This document shows, piece by piece, positions 16,045 to 22,962 of a DNA stretch of 64,000 nt (positions are counted from its first letter, which is position 1; each line of letters opens with the position of its first letter). The notes below the pieces were generated by a model. The model was not told the origin of the DNA. It made no database searches and saw only the letters and a list, made by a program, of their open reading frames with translations. Source of the stretch: Vulcanimicrobiota bacterium (lineage in GTDB: Bacteria; Vulcanimicrobiota; Vulcanimicrobiia; Vulcanimicrobiales; Vulcanimicrobiaceae). Location of the stretch: assembly GCA_963812155.1 (NCBI GenBank), contig CAWETW010000001.1, positions 768,001-832,000 on the forward strand, given 5' to 3'. A program made the position numbers and the translations under genes.

Positions 16045-16577
16045 CGCCGCGCCGACGCCTTGGCTTTCTTCTGCGTCTTCAAGAAGTACACGAGCACGCG
16101 CTTCTCTTCGCGGAAGCCGACCAGACTCTTGGACTGGGCGGGATCGCGCAGCGCCTCGACGGCGCAGAGCGCGGCTTCGTCTTGCGCGGCGGGATCCGCA
16201 TCGAGATGATCGTCCGGCACGGGATTGCGGACGAGCGCGTCGCCGAAGCGATCGCCGAAGAATGCGACCTGAAGCTCGAGTTCCTCTTTAGTAAAACTCT
16301 CCAAGTCCCGGGTGACGTGGACGAACGTCATCGCTCGGTCGCTCTCACATTCCAGCTCCAGCGTTCCGGCGTCGTCTTTGGACAGCGACAAGAAAGCGCG
16401 CACGTGATCGTCGATGGCTTCGACGAGGTCGCTCTGTGCGGTGCGGTCGAGCCGGCGGCGCAACGCGAAGGTGAGCCGCAGAGTCCGCTCGCCCGGCAGC
16501 GAGCGAACCGACGCAACTTCCGGAAATCGCACGAGCAACGCGCAAATCAAGCTCACCGTGTCGGCATTTTCGACCAT
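16041..16577 (-). CDS. Conserved hypothetical protein upstream of ymdB
   Basis: Operonic overlap; L..LLVRFPEV, V.V.RD..S.T.EE, L.GFREE..V.V.F patterns recalled from Firmicutes. Confidence 0.7.
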   Translation of the reverse strand: MVENADTVSLICALLVRFPEVASVRSLPGERTLRLTFALRRRLDRTAQSDLVEAIDDHVRAFLSLSKDDAGTLELECESDRAMTFVHVTRDLESFTKEELELQVAFFGDRFGDALVRNPVPDDHLDADPAAQDEAALCAVEALRDPAQSKSLVGFREEKRVLVYFLKTQKKAKASARR

Positions 16578-16684
16578 GTGCAGACTCCCATTTCCACCGA
16601 GTTCAGTAGCGGCCAGAGGCGGGGGTCTCGACAGTACGACGCCGACCCAAGGCCTCCCCGCGCCCTCCCGTAGAATGAACCCAG

Positions 16685-17236
16685 GTGACCCTCCGCGGGA
16701 TTCCGGGGGCCCTGGTCCTCGGGTTGCTTGCCTCGCTCGTGGCGCATTCGGCGCTCTACGGCGGCGGCCACGCCATGGGCGGCCCGTACCACTCCTGGTT
16801 CCTGGAACTCGGGCTAGCGGGCTGCCTCGGACTGCTCGCCTCGATTGCCGCGCTGGCTTGGACCGGCTCGCGGGCAGCCGCCGACGGCTCGGTGCTGGCC
16901 AGCCGCTTGTGTGAACGCTTGCCCGGAGGGTGGGCGGTCTTCGCCGCGGCGGGCCTCTGGTTCGCCCTCGGCGAGCGCGTCGAGGCGCGCCATGCCGATC
17001 CCAATGCGGTCGTGACGGCGCTGGTTTTGGCCGTTGCCGTATGGGCCGTCTGGGCGGTCGCGCGCTGGTGCGTCCGGCTTCTCGCCGGCGCAGCCATCGC
17101 CATCGGACGCCCGGCCTTCGCTCAGCGGTCGCCGCACTGGGTGCGCTGCGCGGCTCCCGCGCCGATCGCTCGACGCTCGCCGCTGCTGCGGCGGCGCTTC
17201 GCCCGTCCTCCTCCGGTCGCGAACGCCTGCGCGTAA
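16685..17236 (+). CDS. His-rich four-TM leader protein ending in RPPP (candidate arrest peptide)
   Basis: H21/H29/H36/H103, ~4 hydrophobic segments, RRRFARPPP at residues 169-177; TAGAAT -10 box 8 nt before GTG. Confidence 0.75.
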   Translation: MTLRGIPGALVLGLLASLVAHSALYGGGHAMGGPYHSWFLELGLAGCLGLLASIAALAWTGSRAAADGSVLASRLCERLPGGWAVFAAAGLWFALGERVEARHADPNAVVTALVLAVAVWAVWAVARWCVRLLAGAAIAIGRPAFAQRSPHWVRCAAPAPIARRSPLLRRRFARPPPVANACA

Positions 17237-17278
17237 CGCGCAGATCCTCGTTCGCACTCGCTTCTTTTCACCGGAGGA
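17209..17278 (+). promoter_or_regulatory. Nested stem-loop sequestering the SD of 17282
   Basis: TCCTCCGGT(17209-17)/ACCGGAGGA(17270-78); GCGAACG/CGTTCGC; CTGCGCG-TAA-CGCGCAG. Confidence 0.8.
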
Positions 17279-17281
17279 TTT

Positions 17282-18196
17282 ATGTTTCGCATTTACGCGG
17301 CGCTCGGCGCCGTGCTCGTTTGGATTCTCATGGGGCGGGGAACCGCACAGGCGCACGTCGTCTGCGGAGACCGCGTCTTTCCCGCCACCTTAACCATGGA
17401 CGATCCCGGCGTAAGCGACGAGGTATCGCTACCGACGGTCACGCTCACCCCGACGTCGTCGGCACAAAGCAATACCTACGGCTTCGAATGGGATAAGACT
17501 ATTACCGAAGACTTGGGCTTCGGAATCAGCAACGATCTCATCACGCAGCGCAGTCCGGGCCAGAGTTACGCAGGATGGGACAACTGGGAGATCACGCTTA
17601 AGGATCAGCACCCCTGCAGCGAGGTGCACCCTCGCCAAGAATTCGTCTGGGCGGTCGGTGTAGTTCGCGACTTGCCGCTCAGCGGTTCGAAGCAGCTTCG
17701 CGATGCGGGTATCATCGAGGACGTCGGATCCACCTCGGCAACTTTTTATTTCGGCAAAGGCTTTGGCACCGCGTCCGGGTACCTGCGCCCGCTCGCAATC
17801 ACCGGCGAATTCAGCCGCGATTTTTCCGATAACGCCGGTGAGAGTCCGGCCGCGTGGAGTTACGCAGCGTCCTTTCAGTACTCGATGCCTTACCTTCAAC
17901 AGAATGTGAAGGCGCTGCACATTCCGCAATTTTTCACACGCTTGACACCGCTCGTCGAGGTTGCGATGAGTAGCCCCGACAGCGGCGGCACGCCCACGGG
18001 GACGATTTCGCCCGGTTTCCTCTATGATGCGAACACTTGGCAGATAGGTGCCGAGGCCGTCATCCCGGCCAACGGAGCCTCGCGCTTAGAACAAGGCACG
18101 GGATTTATCGTTCAATATCACTTATTTCTCGACTCATTCAATAAGAGTTTCTTCGGCAGGCCACTCGTCAATACAAATCTTTGGGGAAAGCCATGA
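17282..18196 (+). CDS. Exported, probably outer-membrane beta-barrel, copper-associated protein
   Basis: Signal AQA then mature His1 (HVVCG); amphipathic beta strands; overlaps copC. Confidence 0.65.
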   Translation: MFRIYAALGAVLVWILMGRGTAQAHVVCGDRVFPATLTMDDPGVSDEVSLPTVTLTPTSSAQSNTYGFEWDKTITEDLGFGISNDLITQRSPGQSYAGWDNWEITLKDQHPCSEVHPRQEFVWAVGVVRDLPLSGSKQLRDAGIIEDVGSTSATFYFGKGFGTASGYLRPLAITGEFSRDFSDNAGESPAAWSYAASFQYSMPYLQQNVKALHIPQFFTRLTPLVEVAMSSPDSGGTPTGTISPGFLYDANTWQIGAEAVIPANGASRLEQGTGFIVQYHLFLDSFNKSFFGRPLVNTNLWGKP

Positions 18197-18564
18197 ACGC
18201 ACGGATTATCGCAACGCTCTTCTTGCTCGCCCAACTGCTCGTAGCTCCGGCTGTGGTTCGAGCGCACGCATTTCTCGACCATGCCAATCCCGAAGTAGGT
18301 AGCACGGTATCAGCCGCACCCACAGTAGTGCATGTTTGGTTCACGCAAGAACTCGAGCCGGCATTTAGTTGGGTGCAAGTGACCGACAAATCGGGGCAAT
18401 CCGTAGCCGACGGTTCTTCGGCGGTCGATCCTAACAATAAACAGGAGATGGACGTCAAGCTCAAGCCGTTGACGGCCGGAAGCTATACGGTAAAATGGCA
18501 TGCGTTGTCGGTCGATACACACACGACCCAAGGCGACTTCACCTTTCAAGTCAAGGGGAGTTAA
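18193..18564 (+). CDS. copC: Periplasmic copper-binding protein CopC
   Basis: HAFL...P..GSTV..AP, GSYTVKWHALSVDTH.TQG. Confidence 0.92.
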   Translation: MNARIIATLFLLAQLLVAPAVVRAHAFLDHANPEVGSTVSAAPTVVHVWFTQELEPAFSWVQVTDKSGQSVADGSSAVDPNNKQEMDVKLKPLTAGSYTVKWHALSVDTHTTQGDFTFQVKGS

Positions 18565-18588: not shown

Positions 18589-20541
18589 GTGCGAATGCTC
18601 CATTTCGCGGCGAGTGTGTCGCTAGTTGGTGTATTCGTATTATGGTGCTTCATCGTATGGCCCGCCTTTCGCCGCACGCCGGCAGCACTAACGTTTGAGG
18701 GGCGGTGGGACCGGTCGCTCTTCGTGCTGGCTTGGGTGAGCCTGCTCGCCGCACTCATAAGCGGCGGCGCTTGGCTTGCCATCGTTGCAGCGAACATGAG
18801 CGGGATGCCCCTCGCTGGGGTCTTTCAGGGCGGCACCATCAACGTCGTCTTGACGCAAACGCACTTTGGCGCAGCGTGGATCATACGCGCCGGACTTATT
18901 ATCGTCCTAGCAGCGTGTTTGGCCGTACAGGCGCGGAGTCGCAAACATGTGGCAGGCTGGGTCGGACTCATCGCTGCCGGCGCGTTTATTGCCTCGCTGG
19001 CATGGGCCGGCCATGCTGCAGCGACCGAAGACGTGCCGTTCGACGCCGTTCATCTGCCCTCCGACGTTTTGCATTTACTGGCATCAGGCGGCTGGCTCGG
19101 CGCCCTGTTGCCGCTCGTTCTCTTCCTTGCTCAAGCATCGCGCGACAATTTCCCGCCGATGGTTGAGGCTGCGTGTACGGCAACGCGGCGGTTTTCGGTG
19201 CTTGGGATCACGTGCGTGGGAACGTTGATCGTAACCGGCGTTGTGAACACATGGTTCCTAGCAGGCAGCGTTCCAGCATTGCTCGGAACGTTATACGGTC
19301 AACTCCTACTCCTCAAAATAGCGCTATTCGCGATGATGATTATCTTAGCGAGCGTCAATCAGCGGCGACTCCTACCTCGCCTCGCCGGCGCTATGAGGGA
19401 TCCCAATTCTCCTTTGCAAGAACTTCGGCAGGTGGTCCGCAACGCGTCCGTCGAGTCCGGAATCGGCGTCCTCGTTCTTGCCATCGTCGGAATCATGGGC
19501 ATACTGCCTCCGGGACTGCACACCGAGCCACGCTGGCCGCTTCCATTTCGGTTTGATATAAACGAGATTCCACCGGGTACGCAGCCGGCGTTCTACGCCG
19601 CCGCCGCCGCTTTCGCCGTCAGCCTGATCGCCACGCTCGTTATCGCCGAGAGAAAACGCTACCGCGTGATGCCCGCCTCCATTGCCTTGGCCGTCGTTTT
19701 CGGCATCGTTAGTTGCGTTACGCTGCGCTCTGGAATCGTGCGTGCATACCCCACGAGCTTCTATGCGTCGACGCAGGCCTTCGCCGCACCGTCCATCGAC
19801 CGCGGGGCTCCGCTTTACGTAAAGAACTGCCTTATATGTCACGGAGCCACCGGCCGGGGTGACGGTCCGCTTGCCGATCAGCTTGCGGTTCGTCCGGCGA
19901 ACTTGATCGAACCACATCTATTCGCACATAAACCGGGCGAAGTGTTCTGGTGGATTAGCCACGGTAGCGACAATGGGGTTATGCCGGGTTTTGCGGGCAA
20001 GCTGTCTCCCGACCAACGGTGGGATCTGATCAATTTCGTGAAGGCGCGGGCGGCGGGGGTTCTCTCGCAACAGATAGGGTCGCAAATCACTACGGCCACG
20101 GCATTCCCGTTTCCGGATTTTGCGTTCGCGCAAGACGATTCGCAGAGTACGCTGAGCGAACTCCTCAAGAAAGGGCCGGTGCTTGTGGCAATCTTTGCAA
20201 CGCCCATACCGCGAGCGCGATTGGAGCAACTGGCGAAATTGCAGCCGCGACTGGCCGCCGCCGGCCTGCACCTTGTCGCGGTCGATCTCGGCCCAAGAAC
20301 CAATCGCGCGACTCCAGTAGTGAATGTGTCACAGGATGTTACGGCAACGCTCGCTTTGTTTCGCTCTCCCAAGGACGGCGGGGAAACAGAGCTGATGCTC
20401 GATCGAGGCGGCAATGTTCGTGCGCGGTGGACGGCAAGCGGAGTGGCAGGCCTTGCCAGTGCTAACACTCTACTTAGCGATGCTAGCCGGGTTGCGCGCA
20501 TTCCAGTGGCGGCTGCGAATCACGCCGGTCACGCTCCTTAA
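18589..20541 (+). CDS. copD: CopD copper transporter fused to cytochrome c and a redoxin-like domain
   Basis: T.FG..W..R, GHA, HLLA.GGWLG.L, RFS, YGQLLLLK; CLICH heme motif, VMPGF; start may lie slightly upstream. Confidence 0.85.
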   Translation: MRMLHFAASVSLVGVFVLWCFIVWPAFRRTPAALTFEGRWDRSLFVLAWVSLLAALISGGAWLAIVAANMSGMPLAGVFQGGTINVVLTQTHFGAAWIIRAGLIIVLAACLAVQARSRKHVAGWVGLIAAGAFIASLAWAGHAAATEDVPFDAVHLPSDVLHLLASGGWLGALLPLVLFLAQASRDNFPPMVEAACTATRRFSVLGITCVGTLIVTGVVNTWFLAGSVPALLGTLYGQLLLLKIALFAMMIILASVNQRRLLPRLAGAMRDPNSPLQELRQVVRNASVESGIGVLVLAIVGIMGILPPGLHTEPRWPLPFRFDINEIPPGTQPAFYAAAAAFAVSLIATLVIAERKRYRVMPASIALAVVFGIVSCVTLRSGIVRAYPTSFYASTQAFAAPSIDRGAPLYVKNCLICHGATGRGDGPLADQLAVRPANLIEPHLFAHKPGEVFWWISHGSDNGVMPGFAGKLSPDQRWDLINFVKARAAGVLSQQIGSQITTATAFPFPDFAFAQDDSQSTLSELLKKGPVLVAIFATPIPRARLEQLAKLQPRLAAAGLHLVAVDLGPRTNRATPVVNVSQDVTATLALFRSPKDGGETELMLDRGGNVRARWTASGVAGLASANTLLSDASRVARIPVAAANHAGHAP

Positions 20542-20608: not shown

Positions 20609-22952
20609 CTAGCGTTGTGGGGTGGCAAACCGGCACCCCACTTCGAACGTGCGTCCGGAGGCATAGTGGTCGCCCTGGGCATTCTGGTAGGTGATTCGGT
20701 AGCGATCGTTCAGAACGTTGTAGACGGAGAGCGTGAGTGCCGTTCCACCGCGCAACCCAATCCCCTTAACGAAGTCGAACGTCGTATGCGGCGGCACTTT
20801 GCACGAGAAGCTTGCCGGCATGCAGTAATCCGACGATAATCCCGAACCGTACTCGGCGTCGATCGCCAGCCAGCCTCCGCGACGGTCGTTGGCGAGCATA
20901 CCGCCGGTTGCGTCCCAGTTCTGGTCGTGATCGGCGGGCGTCCACCCGGCCGGCGCGCCGAAGCACGGCGCCAGCAACTGCGTTTCGCAGCCGGCATTGA
21001 CCGAGCGCACGTGCGTCAACGAAATATAGGCGCGTCCGCCCGCCGTCAACGGCATTTGGAAGTAGGCGCTCTGCACCGAAACGTTGCCGGCGGCGTAGTT
21101 GATGTCTTGGTGCAGGGCGGTGACGCCGACTTGCGTGTCGTCGATGAGGTCGACGGCGTCTTTCTGCATCAGACGGGCGCCGAGATCTCCGCGCCCGACC
21201 GGAAGATGACCGCCGATTTCGAAGACGCTGTCGCGCTGCGGTCGTAAGTCGAACGTCACCGGCGACGGTTGATCGGGAAGGTTCAACAGATGTGCGGCGC
21301 TCGGCGAGACGTTCTCCAAGGAAAACGGCGTAAAGAACCGGCCGAAGTACGCGTACGCCGAAGCCCGATTCCCCCACAGCCGCGTGAGCTTGATGCGCGG
21401 GCTCGTCTGTGCGAAGCCTTCCTGGAACTGCGTCGAGAAGATCGTGAAAAAGTCTTGGCGGATTCCGGCGTCGAGCAGCCAGATCGGCGACATCGCCCAC
21501 GAATCCTGAAGATACGCGCTGCTCGTGTGGCCGGCGTTGGGCGTGTCGTCGACGACGGCGATCGCCGCATCGGGATGCTCCGGCGTCAACACCGGAGCCA
21601 GGAAGTTGTGCGGCTGCAGGGTCACCGCATAGTTCTTGTCGACGAGCGTCACGTCGTAAGACGCGCCGTAACGGATGGTGTGCTTGCGGTCGTCGAGCAG
21701 ATCGTCGAAGTTCACGATCAGGTCGCGCGCCGTTCGGTCGGCATTGAGGCTGTAGGCGCAGGCCGCGACGCTGCCGTTGGAACAGTCGTCCGCGCGATCC
21801 GCCCGCGGCGACGTTGAGATTGTAGCCGTAGGTAAAATCGTTCGGTGCATCGCCGAAATCGCGAATGCGCGATTGCTTGTAACCGAGGCCGTAGCTGAAG
21901 GCGCCGCCGGACGCGAGCGCGTGGTGCACTTGCGCCGCCAGGAACGAATCGCTCTGGGTTTCGTTGTCGTCGGTGACGGCCGGCTCTCCGCCCGCGACGT
22001 CGTTGGGAATCTGGAAGGACTGATAGGAGTGGATGAGCGTGACGTTCGCATAGTCCTTACCGAAGGGAACCGCGTAGCGCAGGAACGCGTTCGTCTGCGA
22101 ACCGTCGTCGTGGACGGCGGTGAAATTGGGAGGGTCGAGGAAGCGATCGCCCTGCGACGCCGCCAGCGCCAGCGAGAGTTGCCCGCTTCCCGCGGGAGCG
22201 TGTACGTTCACGTACGACGTGTAGGCGGCGTACGATCCGGCTTGCGCGTATCCCGAAGCGCCGGCCGATCCGTTCCCGATGCGCGTATTGACGTTGATTA
22301 CGGCCGCAAAGCGCCCGCCGTATTGCGCCGGAAACGCGCCCTCCACGACATCCATGAATGCGATGTCGCTGGGGTCGATCTCGCTGCCGACCTCTCGGTT
22401 GAGTTCTTGAGGGACCGCAACGCCGTCGACGTAGTAGTTGATGTCGCCGTGATCGCCGTTGATGTGCACCACGCCGTTGGCGCCTCGCGCTGCCGCGGGA
22501 AGTTGTAGGAGCGTCTGCGGCAACGATCCCTGGTAGGGCATCCGGTCGAGCATCGTCTGATTGAGCGTCACGTCCGTACCCGAGCCCTTTACCGGCGGCC
22601 GGGAGACGTTCGCGGCCACGCGGCCGACGGTTGTCAGCAGTTCGATCGTCACCGAAGCGCCGCTCGCGGCCAGGTCCACGATCACGAAGCCCTCGCGATC
22701 CTTCGAGCGCGCCGTGAGCCGGTAACTGCCCGGCGGAAGACCGGTAAAGACGAACGCGCCGTGCACGTCGCCCTCTCGCCGCAGCCGCAAGCCGGCTCCT
22801 TCGAGTGTGATTTGAGCTCCGGAAACGGTCCGCCCGAAGCCGTCGACGACGCTTCCCGTGAGGGTCGCCCCTCCGGCGGCTCGCGCCCCGCCATCGAGCA
22901 AGGCGGCCAGAAGCAGGCACGTGAGCGAACATGCGAAACATTTGCAAATCAT
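20609..22952 (-). CDS. TonB-dependent receptor with carboxypeptidase-like N-domain; frameshift ~21795
   Basis: F.F.GL.PG.Y.L, HINGDH..INYYVDG, FPAQYGGR, YLQDSW, YNVLN..Y. Confidence 0.85.
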
Positions 22953-22962
22953 GATTTGCAAA
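22941..22962. promoter_or_regulatory. 22-bp perfect palindrome on the receptor start codon (candidate operator)
   Basis: TTTGCAAATCA|TGATTTGCAAA. Confidence 0.55.

Follow-up and report, generated by a model that had tools for sequence, protein, structure and literature searches.

Experimental work has established how metal is sensed through ribosome arrest for no more than two translational leaders, both of them small secreted proteins of the DUF2946 type and of opposite logic: CruR (Bp2923) of Bordetella pertussis, which releases its ribosome in the presence of metal, and CutF of Rhodobacter capsulatus, which stalls (bioRxiv 10.1101/2025.02.05.636593). For polytopic arrest leaders, arrest has been demonstrated, but regulation has not. 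Herein, we analyze a polytopic candidate from a Vulcanimicrobiota bacterium, namely a 183-amino-acid (aa) open reading frame (ORF), referred to below as the leader, that lies at 16685..17236 on the forward strand of a 64,000-nucleotide (nt) stretch of contig CAWETW010000001.1 (positions 768,001 to 832,000; this whole stretch is the window, and its numbering is used throughout). We favor, with reasonable though far from complete confidence, the reading that this ORF is the co-translational sensor-leader of a metal-responsive translational switch, and, judged by analogy, it reads as a counterpart, without homology, of CruR and CutF, the arrest leaders that sense copper.

CutF, which is encoded by the first gene of the copper operon cutFOG, shares several features with the leader, which also comes first in its operon. 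Specifically, the metal site of CutF faces the periplasm before its chain has left the ribosome, as we propose for the leader; both proteins have a C-terminal PPP, and the stall at the PPP of CutF is modulated by copper and interacts with EF-P, the factor that relieves PPP stalls; and in both, a stem-loop shields the next ribosome-binding site, that of CutF being opened by the stalled ribosome (bioRxiv 10.1101/2025.02.05.636593). However, CutF, small and secreted, carries a cleavable signal peptide and a CxxxC motif, whereas the leader has four helices, candidate His/Glu ligands, no conserved Cys, and no match to PF11162. Further, CutF controls a detoxifying oxidase and stalls with copper (bioRxiv 10.1101/2025.02.05.636593), while the cargo of the leader is of an uptake type. 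CruR precedes a TonB-dependent transporter in synteny with CopC and YcnI genes, and copper turns its uptake operon off (PMC9426467), which is the direction that we consider the more likely one for the leader as well. CruR also carries R-x-P-P near its C terminus, where the ribosome halts once the two Pro codons of RAPP have reached the P and A sites (PMC12992588). It differs in belonging to another family, with CxxC and a signal peptide, and in acting through Rho-dependent termination across a long intergenic region (PMC9426467), in place of which the leader has a 45-nt gap and a masked Shine-Dalgarno sequence.

The preliminary description of this locus, made from the sequence alone, held that the leader had no characterized equivalent, a statement that is now outdated, given that a 2025 survey (PMC12992588) contains four-helix, His-bearing RAPP leaders next to copper genes. 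The survey searched for RAPP and RGPP and not for RPPP. It places such leaders ahead of genes for TonB receptors, YcnI, and PCu(A)C, and most of those that precede YcnI are predicted transmembrane proteins. One of them, SLIV_18480 of Streptomyces lividans, has four predicted membrane segments and a predicted copper site of three His and one Met, and its arrest of translation was shown both in vitro and with a reporter in B. subtilis (PMC12992588); regulation of the gene downstream of it could not be demonstrated (PMC12992588 supplement). SLIV_18480 resembles the leader in its four predicted membrane segments, its conserved His, its C-terminal R-x-P-P, and its metal-related downstream gene; it is unlike the leader in having RAPP, in the position of its Arg (273 versus 174), in being about 100 residues longer, and in its ligand set of predicted His and Met (PMC12992588) as opposed to His/Glu candidates, the two proteins being compared here by their descriptions. 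No Eremiobacter or Vulcanimicrob string occurs in 9 of 10 supplement files of the survey examined.

More distant parallels concern the arrest itself. ApdA and ApdP have R-x-P-P near the C terminus, an N-terminal localization signal, and control over the next gene in common with the leader (PMC10951233, PMC12992588), but they carry a single signal sequence, and their cargo is protein-export machinery (PMC10951233). The motif R-x-P-P induces arrest with Gly, Ala, Ser, or Pro at x, and, in the ApdA/ApdP contexts, RAPP resists EF-P, while RPPP (Ala changed to Pro) keeps the arrest only partly (PMC12992588). In SecM and MifM, as in our model, a stalled ribosome melts a Shine-Dalgarno hairpin, and release depends on an exported or inserted N-terminal part (bioRxiv 10.1101/2025.02.05.636593); they are unlike the leader in that they control the very machinery that exerts the pull (SecA, YidC2), in their arrest sequences, and in lacking a metal site. 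The leader family is not a new principle, and the metal-responsive arrest-leader kind is already in print. It is a new, previously unannotated family, combining a polytopic build, His/Glu candidate ligands, an RPPP end, a possibly leaderless mRNA, and a nested clamp, and full-text literature searches turned up no publication that deals with this family or with RPPP leaders ahead of CopC or CopD.

The leader ORF is a real, conserved gene. It runs from GTG 16685 to TAA 17234-17236, and an in-frame TGA two codons 5' of GTG 16685 makes this GTG its first possible start. Because the third-position G+C of the ORF is 0.84 in a window of 63% G+C, an open frame alone would be weak proof, and it is conservation that decides. 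Relatives were found by six-frame search in 20 of 41 related genomes (19 of the 24 from the same family-level group and 0 of the 16 from sister groups), at identities down to ~35% and in no case with internal stops. A word-indexed protein search retrieved 137 proteins at an E value of ≤0.001, the named ones being listed as 'hypothetical protein' of Eremiobacteraeota, Tumulicola, or Cybelea, and no Pfam domain was found in any of the 120 homologues listed. Further, a profile of 74 members, compared with 1.84 billion representatives, recovered 213 clusters at E ≤0.001 and 169 at E ≤1e-10, mostly of ~150-200 residues among the 150 clusters listed. The leader protein of the window has no Pfam match at E ≤0.1 and no NCBIfam match, and its structural model has no Foldseek match in the PDB at E ≤0.001. 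Labelled relatives belong to Eremiobacterota/Vulcanimicrobiota, and the titles of 53 loci from a genome collection name Eremiobacteraeota, Vulcanimicrobiota, Cybelea, Tumulicola, or Baltobacteraceae, apart from three bins titled Acidiferrales/Acidoferrum and two that are unlabelled. This range is read from record titles and Atlas labels, and the relatives, being related, are not independent observations. One Atlas look-alike cluster labelled Actinomycetota (score 0.95) and an Atlas pointer to DUF6412 (score 0.81) are leads only.

At the C terminus of the leader, an arrest-type motif, RRFARPPP (codons R170-R-F-A-R-P-P-P177, 17192..17215, forward strand), ends in R174-P175-P176-P177 at 17204-17215, after which come six codons (VANACA) and the stop. 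The preliminary description had rested its reading on this terminal R-x-P-P, which proves to be conserved in homologues, complete with a natural RAPP variant. Specifically, the 120 listed homologues comprise 117 with RPPP, two with RAPP, and one truncated record, and the 141 further representatives comprise 115 with RPPP, nine with RAPP, one with RRPP, and 16 in which the profile match stops before position 172 (fragments or frameshifted records). Thus every member that reaches the motif position has R-x-P-P, and the only common alternative to RPPP is RAPP. In the alignment of 74 leaders, R174, P176, and P177 are each present in 74/74, and the flank is nearly as constant (R170 and R171 72/74 each, F172 69/74, A173 73/74). 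The motif is followed by 1-11 residues, mostly 6-7, in the 120 listed homologues and by 0-17, with modes of 3 and 6, in the further representatives. In having R-x-P-P near the C terminus with its Arg conserved, the leader is like the RAPP class of ApdA and ApdP. Two observations show that selection acts on the peptide and not on the RNA alone: the third base of the Ala173 codon varies (GCC/GCG/GCT/GCA) with the residue kept, and RPPP is retained in the two loci, L020 and L022, where the next Shine-Dalgarno sequence pairs with the stop-codon region instead.

As a separate matter, the pattern [LAT][RH]RRFARPPP matched 253 stretches in the genome collection, of which only 53 encode a leader relative; the remaining 200 might have matched by chance or might encode other proteins with this tail in common. 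The 53 loci, having been picked by this pattern, were used for context and for RNA analysis and not for motif conservation.

Overlying the end of the leader gene is an RNA structure that spans the interval to the next gene. It consists of three nested stems: stem 1 pairs TCCTCCGGT (17209-17217) with ACCGGAGGA (17270-17278), stem 2 pairs GCGAACG (17219-17225) with CGTTCGC (17249-17255), and stem 3 pairs CTGCGCG (17227-17233) with CGCGCAG (17237-17243), its loop being the stop codon itself (17234-17236). The 5' arm of stem 1, on the forward strand like the rest, is an anti-Shine-Dalgarno sequence drawn from the P175-P177 codons plus the GT of V178; its 3' arm holds the GGAGG Shine-Dalgarno sequence of ATG 17282; and stem 2 with the inner hairpin (17227-17243) occupies 17219..17255 between them. 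The ORF, motif, stem, and ATG 17282 coordinates of the preliminary description are all exact on the sequence, and RNAfold of 17190-17300 returned precisely the three nested stems that it had drawn, as both the minimum-energy and the centroid structure. The minimum energy, -46.2 kcal/mol, compares with -34.25 ± 3.07 kcal/mol for 200 dinucleotide shuffles (z of -3.89), none of which (0/200) folds as well. The anti-Shine-Dalgarno arm overlaps codons 17210-17215, those of the proposed P and A sites, a geometry of the SecM/MifM type.

The claim that the Pro codons pair with the Shine-Dalgarno sequence also stands across relatives, in an analysis of 65 distinct loci (63 for pairing folds, with two read-through loci left out). 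First, codon usage is biased: CCT encodes the first and second motif Pro in 47/65 and 58/65 loci, respectively, versus 7% of Pro codons elsewhere in the leaders, and the motif Arg is CGT in 46/65 loci versus 16% elsewhere, the remaining first Pro codons being CCC (12), CCG (5), and CCA (1). Second, in minimum-energy folds from the Arg codon to the next start, at least 3 nt of the Shine-Dalgarno core are paired with the leader tail in 58/63 loci, and the core pairs with the stretch formed by the Arg codon, the PPP codons, and the next codon in 56/63; the tail duplex beats all control windows of the same length from the same leader in 46/63. Third, in an alignment of 60 sequences, stem 1, with its 11 pairs, is 82.4% paired, versus 32-53% with the partner slid by 1-3 columns, and pair 27-114, which involves the first base of the codon after PPP, shows a compensatory change, being A-U in 47 sequences and G-C in 6. 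Only stem 1 was counted formally on the alignment; stems 2 and 3 were followed by per-sequence folds, in which stem 2 changes from GCGAAC/GTTCGC to GCGAGC/GCTCGC in L015-L018, and the stop codon lies inside the inner hairpin loop in 49/60 loci. On a MAFFT alignment of the 60 switch regions, which takes no account of structure and contains many gaps, RNAalifold predicted no pairs at all. The Pro codons of L020 and L022 are not CCUCC-like, and in these two loci the Shine-Dalgarno sequence pairs with the last codons plus the stop, 6-15 nt further on (CTTCCTTAA with TTAAGGAAG and CTTTCCTAAAC with GTTTAGGAAAG). Given the CCT/CGT bias, the tail pairing, the compensatory changes, and the placement of the stop codon in a hairpin loop, selection also acts on the RNA pairing, separately from the peptide.

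The nested hairpins were also considered as a terminator or attenuator, a reading that we set aside, there being no U-run directly after any stem.

The protein architecture of the leader sets it apart from the DUF2946 leaders. An AlphaFold2 model based on the 74-sequence alignment (mean pLDDT of 84; >90 over the helices) has helices at residues 3-25, 33-61, 68-76 (short), 82-99, and 108-141 and a disordered tail from residue 142, that is, four membrane helices and an Arg-rich tail that would be cytoplasmic. Membrane proteins are oriented by their Lys/Arg distribution according to the positive-inside rule. Over the leader family, mean Lys+Arg counts are 0.1 in loop 26-32, 3.0 in loop 62-81, 0.2 in loop 100-107, and 10.5 in the tail; by this rule, the scarcity of Lys and Arg in loops 1 and 3 would place these two loops in the periplasm, and we infer an N-in/C-in topology. 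The preliminary description had excluded a DUF2946 type for this polytopic leader without CxxC, and rightly so: none of the 74 aligned members (0/74) hits PF11162 at E ≤1, no match to it at E ≤0.1 occurs in the leader's own genome (83.85% complete), no Cys is found among the invariant or 90%-conserved columns of the 74 members, such that a conserved CxxC or CxxxC is lacking, and four long helices stand in the model where a DUF2946 protein would have a single Sec signal peptide and a small exported domain.

What the leader conserves instead is His and Glu. The invariant columns of the 74 aligned leaders are L14, H21, H29, G33, P80, E97, H103, R174, P176, and P177, and those conserved at ≥90% are E100, R170, R171, F172, A173, and P175. 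The candidate ligands proposed from the single sequence thus fared well for H21, H29, E97, and H103 (74/74 each) and for E100 (73/74) and less so for H36, which is a majority residue only (57/74). They fall in two stretches of the forward strand: codons H21 to H36 (16745..16792), which cover the end of helix 1, loop 1, and the start of helix 2 and include the invariant H21, H29, and G33, and codons E97-x2-E100-x2-H103 (16973..16993), at the end of helix 3 and in loop 3. On the modeled topology, the candidate ligands would all lie at the periplasmic ends of helices 1-3 or in the two periplasmic loops. Further, the motif Arg lies 71 residues after H103 in 166/224 members and 69-76 residues after it in 222/224.

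The genes that follow the leader point to uptake and, in part, to copper. The preliminary description placed a copper operon downstream; CopC and CopD do follow, but the directly adjacent gene (17282..18196, forward strand), which is the first proposed to be regulated, encodes a 304-aa protein with a signal peptide and a beta-barrel that is no recognized copper gene. This protein has no Pfam or NCBIfam match. Its AlphaFold2 model (mean pLDDT of 73.8, ~14 strands) matches the outer-membrane channels FapF (E value of 6.8e-8) and the COG4313 channel 4rl8 (5.6e-6) in Foldseek, and we consider it probably an outer-membrane channel; an Atlas search pointed to PF13557, as a lead only. CopC (18181..18564, forward strand), whose ORF as listed begins with TTG 18181 and shares 16 nt with the end of the barrel gene, is identified by PF04234 (E value of 9.3e-23) and by NF033814 (5.9e-26; 91 bits, under the 95-bit cut-off). 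CopD, fused to a c-type cytochrome domain (18589..20541, forward strand), is identified by PF05425 (2.2e-24) and PF13442/PF00034 and by NF033808 at 207.5 bits, over the 195-bit cut-off.

The expected adjacency to genes of a metal-uptake type was borne out among the relatives, in which the leader is always the first gene before such genes. The gap between leader and cargo, 45 nt here, is 30-64 nt in 60/63 loci. The next gene is a TonB-dependent receptor of CarboxypepD_reg-Plug-barrel architecture in 54/65 loci; the 304-aa barrel followed by CopC and CopD-cytochrome c occurs in 7/65 (this window, L014, L036, L040, L041, L064, and L077); and a fusion of CopC, CopD, and a signal peptidase, followed by YcnI (DUF1775), occurs in 1/65 (L019). 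Nothing was recognized within 600 nt in L033, and two other loci were left unclassified by the query set. Heading operons with TonB receptor, CopC, and YcnI genes and carrying a C-terminal Pro-repeat or RAPP motif are features that the leader shares with the DUF2946 type. None of the 65 loci classified has a Sec or YidC component as the next gene. The same tail and switch thus stand before three cargo types. Indeed, the closest relative of this locus (90% protein and 93% DNA identity) has receptor cargo, and homology to it ends at 17317, 36 nt into the cargo gene. This break inside the cargo gene indicates that the leader behaves as a regulatory cassette and not as a subunit.

In the switch that we favor, the ribosome would pause when Pro176 occupies the P site and Pro177 the A site, a position that toeprinting has shown for the RAPP motif of CruR. 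With 17210-17212 in the P site, the paused ribosome would protect ~15 nt on each side, roughly 17195-17225, and would hold the 5' arms of stems 1 and 2, such that the Shine-Dalgarno sequence (17270-17278) would be free for as long as the pause lasts; after a short pause, termination would follow, the nested hairpins would re-form, and the Shine-Dalgarno sequence would be masked again. At the pause, 176 residues would have been made, of which ~35-40 would reside in the tunnel, and the four helices and both periplasmic loops, being outside the ribosome, could bind a ligand. H21, H29, E97, E100, and H103 would face the periplasm, and metal occupancy would alter how the nascent chain folds or how much tension it bears and, with that, the length of the pause. 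Specifically, ligand-dependent packing of the bundle could change the tension on the 71-residue connection to the motif. The candidate metal would most likely be copper, because of the genes controlled, and the target would be an outer-membrane importer, here the barrel channel with CopC and CopD and elsewhere the TonB-dependent receptor. Although the sequence does not decide the direction, the CruR logic, in which metal shortens the pause and turns uptake off, is by analogy the more likely one, since the cargo genes are of an uptake type.

If this switch is real, the leader family would be an unusually clear natural test case of a periplasm-facing membrane site that signals to the peptidyl-transferase center, with ~200 sequence clusters, invariant candidate ligands, a 71-residue spacing between ligands and motif, alternation of RPPP and RAPP, three cargo types, and compensatory RNA changes to draw upon. 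It would also provide a functional annotation for a 'hypothetical protein' that heads probable copper-uptake operons in Eremiobacterota, an uncultured phylum of soil and peat.

Several points weigh against this switch. First, stalling, metal binding, and regulation by the leader are all steps that we infer, and the gathering of its His and Glu residues into one site is suggested by the modeled topology only. Second, RPPP is not avoided in the leader's own genome: in a crude gene call of 1,867 ORFs, it occurs 15 times versus 11.1 expected, whereas RAPP, RGPP, RSPP, and RAGP occur at 0.43, 0.29, 0.42, and 0.30 of expectation in the same proteome. A hard arrest by RPPP on its own is thus improbable in this genome. 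Given that RPPP is undepleted and RAPP and RGPP are depleted, the pause is probably modulated or tunable, sensitive to EF-P (for which a gene is present in this genome), and dependent on the RRFA context, which would bring it nearer to CutF than to the hard RAPP arrests. Third, part of the RNA pairing is trivial, in that the CCUCC made by Pro-Pro codons is complementary to any Shine-Dalgarno sequence, and the pairing is absent in 5/63 loci, three of which have gaps of 129-208 nt (L021, L023, and L033) and two of which have a core that pairs elsewhere or only partly (L076 and L077). Fourth, the leader frame misses its usual stop in 2/65 loci, L009 (= L037) and L060. Finally, the TonB receptors match only generic receptor models, below cut-offs, with no copper-specific tie.

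The two frames that miss the stop, those of L009 and L060, run for at least 30 extra codons across the cargo start, with the RPPP and hairpin sequences still there, and reflect either natural indels or sequencing errors in the assemblies.

Among alternative explanations, plain translational coupling, although unlikely, survives best. Here, a ribosome that finishes the leader would open the hairpin and allow translation of the next gene in fixed proportion, and PPP would be kept mainly for its anti-Shine-Dalgarno sequence, CCUCCUCC, and not for stalling. The position of the stop codon inside the structure suits this explanation, given that each terminating ribosome must melt the hairpin, as do the strong synonymous bias toward CCU and the lack of RPPP depletion in the crude proteome. 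However, RPPP is kept where the Pro codons are not CCT and in L020 and L022, where the Shine-Dalgarno sequence pairs elsewhere; R170, R171, F172, A173, and R174 are 93-100% conserved despite their position outside the helix; RPPP is naturally replaced by RAPP, the canonical arrest motif; and the spacing to loop 3 is fixed at ~71 residues.

A slightly poorer chance attaches to a genuine arrest switch that responds to something other than metal, whether insertion capacity (Sec/YidC), EF-P activity, redox, or envelope stress. The polytopic build and the fixed spacing from the fourth transmembrane helix to the motif do resemble the force-sensing MifM, SecM, and CliM, and a PPP pause would be EF-P sensitive, as it is in CutF. 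Against an insertion monitor stand the cargo genes, which are importers, CopC, CopD, and YcnI, with Sec or YidC components next in 0/65 classified loci, and the invariant His and Glu, which would sit at the periplasmic face and which such a monitor would not need. Least probable of all is that the leader is a stable working membrane protein, be it a metal-binding partner or a reductase-like accessory of the importer, with an incidental PPP and a hairpin that tunes stoichiometry: its fold is conserved beyond the need of a disposable leader (pLDDT of >90 over the helices), which a second role alongside regulation would equally accommodate, but a subunit would not be expected always to come first, with the same tail and switch before three cargo types, nor to lose homology to its 93%-identical closest relative 36 nt into the cargo gene.

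Returning to the sensor-leader switch, a bolder version of it, to which we give tentative credence and less than even odds, is that of a portable cassette, comprising a promoter, a leaderless mRNA, a polytopic His/Glu sensor, a three-stem clamp around the stop codon, and the first dozen codons of the cargo, that has moved among importers within one phylum as a general Eremiobacterota strategy. In this version, a periplasmic His/Glu metal site would assemble while the last 40 residues are still in the ribosome, and metal-dependent assembly of the four-helix bundle would set the length of the Pro-Pro-Pro pause. A second polytopic leader in the same genome, described below, which ends in RGPP and precedes a TonB receptor, is what would make the design a general one.

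The proposed 5' end of the cassette is a conserved upstream block (GTACGACG ... AAGGCCTCCCC ... TAGAAT) at 16633..16676 on the forward strand. Its TAGAAT (16671-16676) resembles a -10 box and lies 8 nt upstream of the GTG, with no Shine-Dalgarno sequence between, and most related loci carry this block as well, with TAGAAA or TAGAAT at a distance of ~8 nt from the GTG. Such proximity without a Shine-Dalgarno sequence suggests that the block is possibly a promoter and the mRNA possibly leaderless, or nearly so, with a GUG start. A scan of 16300-17500 with the sigma-70 consensus found no promoter, and the same scan yielded two terminator-like sites that are unrelated to the switch. One soil metatranscriptome run contains a single 193-nt contig identical to 16700-16892, at a depth of 2.1, which stems from an RNA library but does not prove transcription; the remainder of the stretch was uncovered in this run, a result that carries no weight either way.

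At the 3' end, the first dozen or so cargo residues (M-S/F-R-F/I-x-A-A-L-V-A-...) are alike in the TonB receptor and the 304-aa barrel (window 17282-17317; L002-L077), and the cassette seems to include the start of the cargo signal peptide.

The barrel family has 1,146 relatives at E ≤1e-5, with a Pfam domain in none of the 120 listed. Its N-terminal stretch directly behind the signal peptide is invariant and rich in His and Cys (H25, C28); together with H110, C112, and H280, these residues may form a metal-binding plug. In the CopD fusion, the cytochrome domain spans residues ~403-485, and the last ~150 residues have only a weak AhpC-TSA/thioredoxin-like match (E value of 0.036).

Beyond CopD, on the reverse strand of the window at 20609-22961, a gene for a TonB-dependent receptor is split over two overlapping ORFs, 20766-22961 and 20609-22051. 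A tblastn comparison places its N-terminal part in frame -3 and its C-terminal part in frame -1, with the frameshift between ~21535 and 21981, and it is either a pseudogene or an assembly error. This receptor is only ~28% identical to the one that usually follows the leader.

The second leader of this genome, unrelated to the first, lies outside the window (G000:C3:1223749-1224399). It is 216 aa long, has long hydrophobic segments and several His, ends in RKRGPPRPVFG, and lies 41 nt before a gene for an 842-aa protein (1224441-1226969) whose N-terminal part resembles TonB receptors of the CarboxypepD_reg type. In its predicted fold, the last codons (CCGUUUUCGG) pair with AAACGG, directly 5' of a GGAAGG Shine-Dalgarno sequence. 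A paralogous subfamily of the leader itself, with the tail LFSRPPP, is represented on the minus strand of another locus (L019:631-4006), where it heads an operon that encodes the CopC-CopD-signal peptidase I fusion (675 aa), YcnI/DUF1775, and a 283-aa protein without a family, the last being related to a 292-aa protein in L023 and to a match in L033.

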